Shown: piece by piece, positions 2,163 through 8,522 of the stretch
How the letters are laid out: every line of letters starts with the position of its first letter
How positions within the stretch are numbered: the first letter of the stretch is position 1
Sequence record: MN508614.1
DNA: 64,000 nucleotides
Strand: one strand, 5' to 3'
Source of the DNA: Escherichia phage ES12
Notes under the pieces: generated by a model
The model's database searches: none
Seen by the model: only the letters and a program-made list of their open reading frames with translations
Told to the model about the DNA's origin: nothing
Program-made: the position numbers and the translations under genes

Positions 2163-3131
<969 letters not shown>

Positions 3132-3150
<19 letters not shown>

Positions 3151-3620
3151 TCAGTGATAAAGTTATTTAAATTTTGAGTATATTTCTTTTCATCAAAAAT
3201 CTTTTGTTGTCTGCGTAGCCGCCATGGCATTTCAATGAACGTATACCATATCCCAGATAATATTGATGCAGTAAAAATATTAACAAGTATGGTTAAAAGA
3301 ATCCAATCTCCTATTCTGTCCATTGGATTTTTTATAAAAAAGTAAAATACGAATAATGTCACAGGAAGACTAATAATATACCACAGAATCATAATTTTAT
3401 CTGTGAACCAATCAGCGTTCGTTAACTTAGCGCGACCATTATGAATACACACGAATTTATCATCTGTTATAATAGATGGCTTAGCTGCTTGATATCCCAT
3501 TCTAAACTCCCTAATCAACAAATTTTTCATATCTTCGGAACAACCATTCCAGTCAACTCTATCAACTGAAATGCCATCATCCCCATCATCTAAATCATAC
3601 CAGCGAGTTTTTAAAATCAT
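3132..3620 (-). CDS. Small membrane protein (two predicted TM helices), translationally coupled
   Basis: 162-aa ORF, hydrophobic segments ILWYIISLPVTLFVFYFFI and ILLTILVNIFTASILSGIWYTF; stop overlaps nudE start. Confidence 0.6.
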
Positions 3621-3991
3621 TTAATTTTCCTACAATCACTCACAAACTCTTCCATTGATTCTTTTTCAATATAAGACATGTAGCTATTATATTCCTTTAA
3701 TTGTATTTTGTAATCTTTTTTTCTTTGCCAATTTATTTTAAAATTATCATAATGAAAATATAACATGGTACCAAAGAATGAAAATAATGAAATCGCTATA
3801 GTATAATGAAGTTCACTCCAAACTTCTATTATATCTATTATACCGCTGACGTTACTACGGATGTTTAAAATAAGACAGTCAATTAACAATCCAAAAAGAC
3901 TACCCGCAAGAGCTGCAGCCAACGCTACAGCAAAAATTAAAAATGACTCATGAAGAGAATATTTGACTTTATTTAGTTTTGGCTTTTGCAT
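3617..3991 (-). CDS. Small membrane protein (two predicted TM helices), translationally coupled
   Basis: 124-aa ORF, ATG at 3991; stop TGA overlaps next start as ATGA; hydrophobic segments. Confidence 0.6.
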   Translation of the reverse strand: MQKPKLNKVKYSLHESFLIFAVALAAALAGSLFGLLIDCLILNIRSNVSGIIDIIEVWSELHYTIAISLFSFFGTMLYFHYDNFKINWQRKKDYKIQLKEYNSYMSYIEKESMEEFVSDCRKIK

Positions 3992-4365
3992 CGTGATTCC
4001 TTAACAAATTTCATAATTTCATCAAATTCATGCGCAGCAAGTTTAAGCTGATGTTCCTTTTTAATCTTTTTACACTGAGCTTTCCAATCACGTACACGTT
4101 TACGATAGTGTCTTCCTTGATACCAATATCCTATCCAATTTATAGGTACTAATAAAAGCGGAACTACCAACGGAAGAATTAGTGTTGCTCCAAATATTGC
4201 ACCAGATTCAATATCAGTCATAACGTCTATAACCATTCCAGCAATCACCAGAATCACAAATGATACAACTACCACAGGACCTATTAACACATCAGTAGAA
4301 ATTATCTGACGCTTTAATTCATACTTCAACGGTTTACTTGGAAGGTATAGTGATGGTTTTGACAT
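3973..4365 (-). CDS. Small membrane protein; start moved to first ATG (ORF-track start at 4386 is TTG)
   Basis: Hand check: codon at 4386 is TTG, first ATG at 4365; hydrophobic core ILVIAGMVIDV...ILPLVVPLLLVPI. Confidence 0.55.
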   Translation of the reverse strand: MSKPSLYLPSKPLKYELKRQIISTDVLIGPVVVVSFVILVIAGMVIDVMTDIESGAIFGATLILPLVVPLLLVPINWIGYWYQGRHYRKRVRDWKAQCKKIKKEHQLKLAAHEFDEIMKFVKESRCKSQN

Positions 4366-4942
4366 ATTCTCTACATTCCTTAACAAATTTTTCTAATAAT
4401 AAATCGCTTTCAAAATTGGGATTTTCTACGAATTTATCAAAAAGATCATCGACAATAGTTAAGATATTCTTTTTACTAAGAATACGTTTATTTTCATATT
4501 TTGTTTCAGAGTCAACTATAAGAGTAAAGAAATATTTCTTGCCCTGAAATTTTACAGTAGTATCAATATAGAATAAATTTGACTTTTGTAAATTACGTTT
4601 AAACCATGCATCACTTAAACTATAAACGCCAAGATAATCATAATCGTCGTTTAAATAACAGACCGTCCATTCAGGAGAAACAAAATCAGTAAATTCAACG
4701 TCAAAATCGCATGTTAATAAATGAATTGATTCAATACTGTTAATAAGTATTCCAGGACGTATTAAAGACTTTTTACCTCTAGAAAATCTTCCAGAAAGAC
4801 TTTCAACAGTTTCATATGAAGAACCCCAATAATAATTACGTCCTTCTGCCATACGTTTAAGAGCATTTAATAATTGGTCTGGAACATCAACCTGTCTTTG
4901 GAACTCTTCAAACATTGAATTGAAATCACTTTGCATTTTCAT
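4334..4942 (-). CDS. Hypothetical protein
   Basis: 202-aa ORF with ATG; likely real start at Met3 (4936) with AGGAA RBS. Confidence 0.6.
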   Translation of the reverse strand: MKMQSDFNSMFEEFQRQVDVPDQLLNALKRMAEGRNYYWGSSYETVESLSGRFSRGKKSLIRPGILINSIESIHLLTCDFDVEFTDFVSPEWTVCYLNDDYDYLGVYSLSDAWFKRNLQKSNLFYIDTTVKFQGKKYFFTLIVDSETKYENKRILSKKNILTIVDDLFDKFVENPNFESDLLLEKFVKECREYVKTITIPSK

Positions 4943-4962
4943 TCCTACTTACTCCAAGTAAT

Positions 4963-4978
4963 AGGGGCCGAAGCCCCT
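4963..4978 (-). terminator. GC hairpin with UUCG loop on minus strand, after the 4984..5577 gene
   Basis: aggggccgaagcccct perfect inverted repeat directly after the stop codon. Confidence 0.5.
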
Positions 4979-4983
4979 TATCA

Positions 4984-5577
4984 TTATTTCAGAGAATTAA
5001 TATATTCCTGAACATCGGCAGAGGTAGTTTCAACCCCAGAAATATTACCATTAAAGGTTTCAACTCGAGCAAGAGTATCTTCAATATCAACCTTAGTCAG
5101 TGCTGCAATTTCAACTACATCATCAGCAGTACTAATTCCAAGGGCATTCGCGGCGCGAGTTTCACGGATATATTCCAATTTAACTGCAAGTTCTTGGCGA
5201 GCATCATCTAACTCAACTACTTTCTTGGCGATTTCAATTCGCATTTCAGCATAACCATCAGCTTTAGTAGTCAACTGCTCAGCTGTTCGACGATATAGTA
5301 AACCAAGTTTAGCATGCATTGTTACATCTTGACCTTCCGAAAGGAGCTTGCGAATTTCACGCTCTTTTGATTCGGCCTGCTTATTCTTTTCGACAATAAG
5401 TTCACGAATACGCTTTTCTTCATTAATAGATTTAACAGAAGCAGTTTTTAGATCTTTAATCTTATCAAGTAGTTTTGCTGCCGCAGCAGTATACTGTTCT
5501 TCAACAGATAGATTTTTAGCCATAGCAGAACCAAGTTTAGTGCGAATAAACTCAACAATTTTCTTCAGTGTGTTCAT
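4984..5577 (-). CDS. Coiled-coil protein, possibly PspA/IM30-like
   Basis: 197-aa ORF, AGGAAA RBS, own early promoter; heptad-rich sequence with DTLARV segment. Confidence 0.7.
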
Positions 5578-5621: not shown

Positions 5622-5651
5622 ATTATACTCTACTCCCAAGAGTTTGTAAAC
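5622..5651 (-). promoter_or_regulatory. T4-type early promoter (-35 GTTTAC, 18-nt spacer, -10 TATAAT) within a stem-loop (PeSL-like)
   Basis: Minus strand reads GTTTAC-aaactcttgggagtagag-TATAAT; inverted repeat gggagta/tactccc brackets the -10. Confidence 0.55.
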
Positions 5652-7768: not shown

Positions 7769-7844
7769 TGGTCGAGGCAGTAGGGATCGAACCTACGACC
7801 TAGGACTTAGAAGGTCCTTGCTCTTCCTTCTGAGCTATGCCTCG
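7769..7844 (-). tRNA. tRNA-Arg (anticodon UCU)
   Basis: Hand-folded cloverleaf: acceptor CGAGGCA/UGCCUCG, anticodon loop CUUCUAA, T-loop GGTTCGATCC, CCA encoded. Confidence 0.85.
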
Positions 7845-7848
7845 GATT

Positions 7849-7923
7849 TGGCGGACGTGATAGGATTCGAACCTATAACCAATCGCTTAACAGGCGATCG
7901 CTCTGCCATTGAGCTACACATCC
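7849..7923 (-). tRNA. tRNA-Asn (anticodon GUU)
   Basis: Acceptor GGATGTG/CACGTCC, anticodon stem ATCGC/GCGAT, loop CTGTTAA, T-loop TTCGAAT, discriminator G, CCA encoded. Confidence 0.8.
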
Positions 7924-7927
7924 AAAT

Positions 7928-8014
7928 TGGTGGGGAGTGATGGAGTCGAACCACCCGAGTCGCAATGACAATGGATTTACAGTCCACACCGCTACCTCTA
8001 CGGGATAACTCCCC
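7928..8014 (-). tRNA. tRNA-Tyr (anticodon GUA), long variable arm
   Basis: Acceptor GGGGAGT/ACTCCCC, anticodon loop CTGTAAA, 15-nt variable arm, T-loop TTCGACT, CCA encoded. Confidence 0.8.
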
Positions 8015-8023
8015 AAATTAATT

Positions 8024-8098
8024 TGGTGGCCCTGGGTGGAATTGAACCACCATCTGGCGATTATGAGTCGCTTGCTTGAACCTTCCAGCTACAGGGCC
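8024..8098 (-). tRNA. tRNA with CAU anticodon (Ile2 or Met; Ile expected by analogy with T4)
   Basis: Acceptor GGCCCTG/CAGGGCC, anticodon loop CTCATAA, T-loop TTCAATT, CCA encoded. Confidence 0.75.
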
Positions 8099-8099
8099 T

Positions 8100-8175
8100 T
8101 GGTGCTGATTGACGGAATCGAACCGCCGACCTTCTCATTACAAGTGAGTTGCTCTACCTACTGAGCTAAATCAGC
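8100..8175 (-). tRNA. tRNA-Thr (anticodon UGU)
   Basis: Acceptor GCTGATT/AATCAGC, D-arm GCTCAGTAGGTAGAGC, anticodon loop CTTGTAA, T-loop TTCGATT, CCA encoded. Confidence 0.85.
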
Positions 8176-8180
8176 AAAAC

Positions 8181-8270
8181 TGGCGGAGGCGATAGGATTT
8201 GAACCTATGAGTCGCCGGAGCGACTGCCGGTTTTCAAGACCGGTGCATTAAACCACTCTGCCACGCCTCC
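8181..8270 (-). tRNA. tRNA-Ser (anticodon UGA), type II
   Basis: Acceptor GGAGGCG/CGCCTCC, anticodon stem CCGGT/ACCGG, loop CTTGAAA, long variable arm, CCA encoded. Confidence 0.85.
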
Positions 8271-8272
8271 AG

Positions 8273-8346
8273 TCTCCATACAAGGATTTGAACCTTGGAC
8301 CTCCTGATCCCAAATCAGGCGCTCTACCAAACTGAGCTACACGGAG
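8273..8346 (-). tRNA. tRNA-Pro (anticodon UGG), CCA not encoded
   Basis: Acceptor CTCCGTG/TATGGAG (two G-U pairs), anticodon loop TTTGGGA, T-loop TTCAAAT; 3' end followed by CTG not CCA. Confidence 0.8.
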
Positions 8347-8356
8347 TAAATTAAAT

Positions 8357-8430
<74 letters not shown>

Positions 8431-8435
8431 AAATT

Positions 8436-8522
8436 TGGTGCGAGAAGTGGGACTCGAACCCACAAGGAAATCATTCCGCAGCATTTTAAGTGCTGTGCCT
8501 TTACCAATTTGACCATTCTCGC
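8436..8522 (-). tRNA. tRNA-Leu (anticodon UAA), type II
   Basis: Acceptor GCGAGAA/TTCTCGC, anticodon stem CAGCA/TGCTG, loop CTTAAAA, long variable arm, T-loop TTCGAGT, CCA encoded. Confidence 0.85.

Follow-up and report, generated by a model that had tools for sequence, protein, structure and literature searches.

A shared C-terminal motif and overlaid ribosome-binding sites in the overlapping e.5-e.2 gene chain of Escherichia phage ES12

Introduction

Escherichia phage ES12 (sequence record MN508614.1) carries, on the minus strand of the 64,000-nucleotide stretch of DNA analyzed here (hereafter the window), a chain of short overlapping genes comprising the orthologs of phage T4 e.5, e.4, e.3, and e.2, followed by nudE. 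The e.2, e.3, e.4, and e.5 proteins were found to share the C-terminal core Φ-x-x-F-[I/V]-x-[E/D]-[C/S]-R, where Φ is a hydrophobic residue (e.g., LEKFVKECR in e.5), and comparison across related genera indicates that this core is a motif conserved at the protein level and not a by-product of the ribosome-binding site. We consider it probable that these genes belong to an accessory early operon in which a tail helix is conserved as protein, the Shine-Dalgarno (SD) sequence of the next gene is overlaid on it by codon choice, repeats mark the gene junctions, and the helix would serve in docking.

The observation is real and lies far beyond chance, yet it concerns T4 open reading frames (ORFs) that have already been catalogued, e.2, e.3, and e.4 being annotated in T4 as "conserved hypothetical, predicted membrane protein" (PMC9697503 supplements). 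Neither functional work on e.2-e.6 nor a description of a shared motif was found in the searchable literature. What is new is the C-terminal peptide common to e.2-e.5, the overlay of the SD sequences by codon choice, and the junction repeats that delimit lost cassettes.

Results

The C-terminal motif and its conservation

All features described below lie on the minus strand, and positions are those of the window. Along the chain, the motif takes the form FVKECR in e.5 (4334-4942, 202 amino acids [aa]; codons TTT GTT AAG GAA TGT AGA at 4370-4387), FVKESR in e.4 (3973-4365, 130 aa; TTT GTT AAG GAA TCA CGA at 3991-4008), FVSDCR in e.3 (3617-3991, 124 aa; TTT GTG AGT GAT TGT AGG at 3629-3646), and FITECR in e.2 (3132-3620, 162 aa; TTT ATC ACT GAA TGC AGG at 3144-3161). 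The original prediction, a first reading of the bare sequence, had ascribed an (E/D)CRK(I/L)K-type ending to all four proteins; this describes e.2 (ECRKLK) and e.3 (DCRKIK; tail end SMEEFVSDCRKIK), whereas e.4 terminates in FVKESRCKSQN and e.5 continues as FVKECREYVK plus 11 residues, its motif LLLEKFVKECREYVK standing 11 codons before the stop. The pattern F[IVL]x[ED]CR has only three matches in the six frames of the whole 166.8-kb genome, and all three fall in this locus and at C-termini.

The versions found in Tequatrovirus are FVKECR, FVKESR, FVSDCR, and FITECR; those in Mosigvirus are FIMECR, FVKEIR, FIKECR, FITECR, and a second FIKECR carried by ORF133c, a further paralog with two transmembrane (TM) segments. 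Dhakavirus has FI[ATK]ECR, FIKEVR, FIKECK, and FI[EK]ECR, and Kanagawavirus has FVEQCR, FIRNVR, FIQMCR, and FIKGCR. Gene-specific versions are kept across genera, namely FITECR in e.2 (two genera), FVKE[S/I]RC in e.4, and ECREY[V/A]K in e.5, and they therefore point to vertical descent under purifying selection and not to recent homogenization. Among nine e.2 homologs with 26-47% identity, 15 alignment columns are invariant, and four of these are the F, I, C, and R of the motif. Metagenomic relatives of e.2 (33-36% identity) end in FIKECRK, FIKMCRNS, and FIKGCRK. A scan of IMG/VR for the FIKECRK coding pattern yielded 44 matches, two of which are relevant (Mosigvirus e.3), the others being internal or chance matches.

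Hydrophobic residues at positions -3, 0, +1, and +4 from the Phe would form one face of an amphipathic helix, and the -3 position is far 5' of any SD. For 11-mers within or adjoining the motif, the hydrophobic moments were 0.59-0.71, the best 11-mer of e.2 lying just upstream of the core. The tail of e.4 also contains an internal second copy of the pattern, W94-x3-C98-K (RVRDWKAQCKKIK; residues 88-102, window 4078-4119), in which W94 and C98 do not vary among the three genera compared; the terminal copy is without the Cys. From this arrangement, e.4 could be an old fusion of a two-TM gene with the 3' end of a lost neighbor.

SD sequences and codon choice at the junctions

The original prediction had described the ORFs as chained by ATGA or longer overlaps, and this proved correct: along e.5, e.4, e.3, e.2, and nudE, the overlaps measure 32, 19, 4, and 4 nt, the last two being ATGA. 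Junctions were compared across Tequatrovirus, Mosigvirus, Dhakavirus, and Kanagawavirus loci by taking the best anti-SD pairing before each downstream start; at the e.2 junctions of Tequatrovirus and Mosigvirus, the automatic scan picked an earlier in-frame ATG, and the starts and SDs were placed by hand. In the window, the SD is TTAAGGAA both for e.4 (4376-4383, within e.5) and for e.3 (3997-4004, within e.4), TAGGAA for e.2 (3627-3632, within e.3), and CAGGAA for nudE (3142-3147, within e.2). Three of these junctions have SD duplex energies of -4.2 to -6.1 kcal/mol and spacers of 5-10 nt, and the hand-placed CAGGAA of the e.2/nudE junction has a spacer of about 6 nt. By this pairing, the genes are predicted to be translationally coupled, each of the four overlaps having its SD within the upstream ORF. 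A conserved RNA hairpin at the junctions was considered and rejected, since no significant structure was found there (fold z-scores from -1.77 to +1.80).

Relative to the Phe of the motif, the SD occupies one of three registers. In register 1 (+4 to +6), it is formed by the I/V-K-E codons (TTAAGGAA, TTGAGGAA, TAAGGAGGT, or AAAGGGT) and was seen in e.5 and e.4 of Tequatrovirus, e.3 and e.4 of Mosigvirus, e.2, e.3, and e.4 of Dhakavirus, and e.2 of Kanagawavirus. In register 2 (+14 to +16), it is formed by the C-R-K/G codons (YAGGAA, CGAGGA, or GAAGGAA), as seen in Tequatrovirus e.2 and e.3, Mosigvirus e.2 and ORF133c, and Kanagawavirus ORF-139. In register 3 (+27 to +29), represented by Dhakavirus e.5, it lies beyond the motif, whose codons ATT GCT/ACT/AAA GAA TGY CGY contain no SD. 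The residues F, I/V, C, and R persist in all three registers, and in e.2 and e.3 most of the core precedes the SD.

The codons of the motif vary synonymously, with AGG, AGA, CGA, CGT, or CGC for Arg, TTT or TTC for Phe, and TGT or TGC for Cys. Genome-wide, AGG accounts for 3.3% of Arg codons and AAG for 20% of Lys codons; in the motif, both sit exactly where an SD is needed, and CGY or AAA is found instead where it is not. The residues past Cys-Arg vary freely among relatives, which end in CRKLK, CRKIK, CRK, CRGK, CRNLR, or CKS directly before the stop codon. These comparisons indicate that the SD, spacer, start, and stop codons dictate the residues after Cys-Arg and the choice of codons.

The original prediction had placed the SD and ATG of the next gene in the codons TGT/TGC-AGG-AAA-ATT/TTA-AAA-TGA and had regarded the peptide as a probable by-product of coupling. 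The codon string is present at the ends of e.2 and e.3, whereas in e.4 and e.5 the SD lies in another register; the by-product reading suits the last three or four codons and the codon choice and fails for the core F, I/V, C, and R, which is kept across the three registers. Conservation of the motif in homologs without an overlapping downstream gene, which that reading itself had named as speaking against it, is in effect what was found, as these four residues are retained where the SD sits elsewhere, including Dhakavirus e.5. Ordinary junctions coupled by an ATGA stop/start overlap likewise carry the SD inside the upstream ORF, here at four successive overlaps; however, they impose no common peptide, whereas the e.5-e.2 junctions carry one. 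In the window, the tails of five other ATGA-coupled pairs are unrelated and show no common peptide.

Junction repeats and loss of cassettes

Two pairs of direct repeats occur at the junctions. Repeat A (AAATTTGTTAAGGAAT) is an exact 16-nt repeat, whose copies at 3996-4011 and 4375-4390 flank e.4 (z = 6.8). Repeat B is a gapped repeat of about 60 nt, whose copies at the e.2/nudE junction (3100-3161) and the e.3/e.2 junction (3585-3646) flank e.2 (local alignment z = 5.4) and continue beyond the start codon to a common GCTGGTAT. None of 500 shuffles reached either local-alignment score. The A-type and B-type junctions show no DNA similarity to each other (z ~0) despite encoding the same motif.

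To judge from the comparison of related loci, whole cassettes have been deleted at the junction repeats without breaking the coupled chain. In T2 and PST, which are without e.2, the e.3-nudE joint corresponds to a crossover in TGCAGGAAA, with e.3 sequence before it and e.2/nudE sequence after it. The Dhakavirus loci L015-L017 are without an e.4-like gene, and their joint, AA[AG]G[AG]GGTTC..AATGG, lies in the SD-spacer-ATG segment of both flanking junctions. In a Kanagawavirus-like contig (L019, 5995-6501, compared with L009, 4929-5743), e.2 ends in FIKGCRNGRN and is joined directly to nudE at the two start codons, ORF-131 of PEi26 having been removed. Matches to e.3 were obtained by tblastn in 607 phage records; at an identity of at least 60%, e.4 matched in 503 records, e.3 in 498, and e.2 in 447, which suggests that roughly a tenth of Tequatrovirus-type records are without e.2.

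The junction repeats resemble the promoter-early stem-loop (PeSL) repeats that mediate modular shuffling in T4-type phages; these are short repeats with an SD and a start codon that flank accessory ORFs in hyperplastic regions, and recombination between them excises or inserts single-gene cassettes (PMC2839356, PMC4122927), as is matched here by the loss of e.2 in T2 and PST and of the e.4-like gene in L015-L017. They differ from PeSL in being located within a coding region, namely the 3'-terminal part of the upstream gene, in having neither promoter nor stem-loop, in preserving the coupled chain, and in encoding a conserved peptide. The intergenic combination of sigma-70 promoter, stem-loop, and SD that characterizes PeSL was not found at these junctions, which are coding overlaps.

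A single 524-bp ENA contig (P0119) contains an 83-aa ORF in which an unrelated, soluble N-terminal part is followed by the final 21 residues of e.2. This part had no counterpart in the phage collection, and the ORF was given little weight; it is either a replaced cassette in which the junction was retained or a chimera produced by assembly.

In Mosigvirus, Dhakavirus, and Kanagawavirus, 7-14 extra ORFs lie between e.3 and e.2. In loci L006 (5584-6378), L007 (5691-6936), and L009 (711-2322), three to six tandem small soluble paralogs (65-106 aa) occupy this interval, and these paralogs of the three genera all end in W-x-[S/P]-S-S-x-x-C directly before the stop codon (e.g., GAWVSSSALC, GGWVSSSMEC, GFWFSSSMSC), and after each comes TAAGGAA, the SD of the following gene. 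ORFs of 318 and 228 aa (RB69 ORF134c and ORF132c types) are located downstream of them, and by analogy the layout resembles that of a multi-copy precursor-peptide family.

Membrane topology and protein bodies

Topology was derived from Kyte-Doolittle windows and positive-inside charge counts. The e.2 protein comprises a cytoplasmic N-domain (residues 1-75), TM1 at about residues 76-96 (3333-3395), TM2 at about residues 105-128 (3237-3308), and a basic tail. In e.3, TM1 spans about residues 17-43 (3863-3943) and a weaker TM2 about residues 63-79 (3755-3805), the latter being borderline, with a Kyte-Doolittle value of 1.6 reached over only ~17 residues. In e.4, TM1 and TM2 lie at about residues 26-48 and 56-81. 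The e.5 protein has no hydrophobic segment and is predicted to be soluble. The N-termini and C-tails of e.2, e.3, and e.4 are basic and their loops short or acidic, and this charge pattern supports the prediction that all three are N-in/C-in hairpin proteins of the inner membrane, whose tails would therefore be cytoplasmic. Hydropathy and charge counts thus agree with the original prediction of three consecutive minus-strand ORFs with two TM segments each, with the reservation that TM2 of e.3 is weak. The outer limit of the triplet, which had been set at 4386, needs revision, as the TTG there is an unlikely start and the homologs begin with MSKP(S/T)LY at the ATG at 4363-4365.

When e.2, e.3, and e.4 were compared with one another by BLASTP and hhalign, only the tails following TM2 aligned (13-43 columns, probabilities of 32-92%); whole-gene paralogy of the two-TM bodies is at most a possibility. 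The N-domain of e.2 carries a conserved block (residues 1-28; window 3537-3620) with the invariant pattern W7..[LI]-D11-D12...G16......D23-W24..C27, with another Cys among its invariant residues; the block matched no family or fold.

Identity of the locus and neighboring genes

The window DNA is 100% identical to that of Escherichia phage ES26 (Tequatrovirus). On profile matches and gene order, the three two-TM ORFs are the orthologs of T4 e.2 (PHROG 2203, E = 3.2e-78; alignment of nine homologs), e.3 (PHROG 2330, E = 4.4e-62; homolog alignment), and e.4 (PHROG 2604, E = 1.8e-69; alignment, with a 130-aa e.4 annotated in AR1, T2, and T4), and the soluble protein is that of e.5 (PHROG 2607, E = 6e-109). 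The profile matches span the whole proteins, with E-values of 1e-62 to 1e-109. Downstream, nudE (e.1; 2695-3135) encodes a Nudix hydrolase (Pfam NUDIX, E = 6.2e-13; PHROG 1185) and is the final cistron of the coupled chain, its start overlapping the e.2 stop as ATGA; it is followed by the lysozyme gene e (2163-2657). The e.6 gene (4984-5577) precedes e.5. The order e.6-e.5-e.4-e.3-e.2-nudE-e is identical to that in the annotated AR1, T2, PST, and T4 records.

Precomputed annotations assign the Pfam family PF26896 to e.2 homologs and PF26876 to e.5 homologs. Scans of the e.2-e.6 proteins against Pfam and NCBIfam gave nothing above noise, no PADLOC defense or immunity profile matched them at E <= 0.1, and a PDB sequence search with e.5 and e.6 gave no match. 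Word-indexed homolog searches returned Tequatrovirus sequences and one Mosigvirus e.5. The e.2 family appears narrow, since a full HMMER scan with e.2 recovered only 11 clusters.

The comparison with T4 e.2-e.6 that had been proposed in the original prediction identified direct orthologs in the same order, and T4 e.2, e.3, and e.4 show the same overlaps and tails as in the window. Loss of one nucleotide in an A-run shortens T4 e.2 to 102 aa, whereas e.2 of the window is intact (162 aa). The A-run in question is TTTTTTATAAAAAATCC (window 3322-3345; T4 locus L005, 2860-3168); the downstream part of T4 e.2 could restart at an in-frame ATG (MDRIGDW...), and PHROGs 35263 and 35580 correspond to the two pieces.

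The e.6 gene is far more conserved than e.2-e.5, with ~80% nucleotide identity in cases where the rest of the query fails megablast; its product is coiled-coil-like in appearance and has no significant Pfam match. Farther along, nine tRNA genes (Arg, Asn, Tyr, Met, Thr, Ser, Pro, Gly, and Leu; 7769-8522) are clustered upstream of the e.8/e.7 region and represent the T4-type tRNA cluster.

Expression and accessory nature

Upstream of e.6 lies the best-matching sigma-70-like sequence, TTTACA-17-TATAAT (11/12 consensus positions; 5622-5650), a consensus match only, from which e.6 through nudE would likely be transcribed early. At the 5' boundary of the overlapping chain, the 41 nt that separate e.6 from e.5 contain a GGGGC-UUCG-GCCCC tetraloop hairpin (4962-4979), which is more likely a stabilizer or processing element than a terminator because it has no T-run on the mRNA strand. 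In T4, the RNA of e.2-e.6 and nudE is classed as early, and the proteins are assigned to the early (e.4 and e.5), middle (e.2, e.6, and nudE), and late (e.3) classes (PMC9697503 supplements). The module is accessory, and a core role in lysis is unlikely, as argued by the early T4 transcripts, the truncation of e.2 in T4, and its absence in T2 and PST.

Discussion

We propose that e.6-e.5-e.4-e.3-e.2-nudE forms an accessory early operon of T4-type phages, in which the e.2, e.3, and e.4 hairpins would each bear a basic cytoplasmic tail ending in the short amphipathic helix Φ-x-x-F-[I/V]-x-[E/D]-C-R, and the soluble e.5 protein would end in the same helix. The SD and start codon of the next cistron are written into or just after this motif by synonymous or near-neutral codons (AAG-GAA, GAG-GAA, AGG-AAA, or CGA-GGA). 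Through the cytoplasmic helix that they have in common, e.5 and the three hairpins may then bind a single partner, or one another, on the inner side of the membrane. A broader form of this proposal, in which the helix is a docking or assembly peptide shared by e.2, e.3, e.4, ORF133c-type paralogs, and e.5, that is, a modular "tail-tag" whose DNA doubles as ribosome-binding site and recombination joint, is advanced tentatively and with considerable doubt.

Unrelated proteins that carry a common short C-terminal peptide have a parallel in T4, where gp43, gp33, and gp55 bear C-terminal tails that bind the clamp (gp45). The likeness is one of concept: the clamp-tail sequences are unrelated to the motif described here, and three of its carriers are membrane proteins.

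Several observations weigh against the proposed operon and its docking helix. A binding role is our best guess, the helix being predicted and its partner putative, and AlphaFold2 models built on shallow alignments were poor (e.5, pLDDT 59 and pTM 0.55; e.2, pLDDT 54 and pTM 0.26). The Cys-Arg pair is not absolute, as Cys is replaced in e.4 by Ser, Ile, or Val, and Arg by Lys in Dhakavirus e.3. In some natural alleles of e.3, a frameshift precedes the tail (97-aa forms), and T4 e.2 is split, from which selection on the individual members appears weak. In vB_EcoM-UFV05 and UFV09, a rearrangement bypassed the junction repeats and produced an e.4::e.2 hybrid (P0110) in which residues 1-31 of e.4 run into residues 87-162 of e.2; the joint lies within TM1, at a CCTGT microhomology, and the remainder of e.4, the whole of e.3, and the e.2 N-domain have been removed. 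Finally, part of the similarity within the genome is repetition in the DNA itself and could stem from past recombination instead of function.

The last point leads to the alternative that the common tail is a recombination relic, namely the retained 3' end of earlier cassettes, crossovers at the ribosome-binding-site junctions having given unrelated bodies the same last 20-60 nt with no selected function in the protein. The two repeat pairs that bracket e.4 and e.2, the precise cassette losses at repeats in T2, PST, Dhakavirus, and L019, the limitation of hhalign similarity among e.2, e.3, and e.4 to the tail, and the P0119 ORF, with the last 21 residues of e.2 on an unrelated body, would all suit such a history. 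However, the A- and B-type junctions encode the same motif without similarity in DNA, the gene-specific motif versions argue for vertical descent under purifying selection, substitutions are concentrated on synonymous sites, and P0119 is a single 524-bp contig. We therefore regard a pure relic as unlikely.

With regard to function, the main rival to a docking helix is an in-plane membrane anchor, in which the terminal amphipathic, basic helix would lie on the membrane surface in the manner of MinD or FtsA, tethering e.5 and laying the hairpin tails on the bilayer. The predicted hydrophobic face followed by Lys and Arg residues, the hydrophobic moments, and the presence of the helix in e.5, which has no TM segment, are as expected of an anchor; however, membrane-targeting helices tolerate wide variation, so that neither an acidic residue at +3 nor invariance of the Cys and Arg would be expected, and the helix is short, with about nine conserved positions. 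This reading seems to us distinctly improbable.

The view that the SD and ATGA of the next gene merely happen to translate into CRK(I/L)K, without any protein-level function, accounts for the AGGAAA SD and the ATGA inside the C-R-K-x-K-stop codons of e.2 and e.3, for the rare AGG and AAG codons exactly where the SD is needed, and for the change of residues past the Arg with spacer length. It does not explain why, in e.2 and e.3, the SD comes only after the core Φxx-F-I/V-x-E-C, why F, I/V, C, and R stay while the SD register moves by 10 to 25 nt among orthologs, or why Dhakavirus e.5 keeps FI[ATK]ECRE in non-SD codons with the SD 27-29 nt downstream. The use of five Arg codons, the unrelated tails of the five other ATGA pairs, and the uniqueness of the motif in the genome also speak against it; the register comparison thus appears to have largely refuted this view, to which we assign very little likelihood.

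Least probable of all is a membrane triplet that controls lysis as holin, antiholin, or spanin-like proteins beside gene e. Small membrane-protein ORFs do lie less than 1 kb from e, but no holin, antiholin, or spanin family was matched in Pfam, NCBIfam, or PHROGs, and in T4 the transcripts, as well as the e.4 and e.5 proteins, fall in the early class. T4 has a truncated e.2, T2 and PST have none and lyse normally, e.3 is deleted in UFV05 and UFV09, and the T4 holin and antiholins (t, rI, and rIII) map elsewhere.

Under the proposed accessory operon, the module may be a dispensable host-interaction or exclusion-type accessory and not lysis machinery. T4 Imm and similar phage exclusion proteins are small, early, non-essential hairpin-type proteins of the inner membrane. 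The e.2-e.4 proteins resemble Imm in size, early timing, and predicted hairpin type; Imm and exclusion proteins gave no cross-match in the general PHROG and Pfam scans, which included no comparison aimed at Imm. To our knowledge, no exclusion phenotype has been reported for e.2-e.4.

Four early proteins of T4 thus gain a testable handle, since they share one C-terminal peptide and a single bait could identify a partner. The same short sequence would perform three jobs, as protein motif, as translation-initiation region of the next cistron, and as recombination joint, and these could be separated by codon choice. The case also serves as a warning that C-terminal similarity at overlapping gene junctions should not be dismissed as an artifact of the ribosome-binding site before orthologs have been checked.

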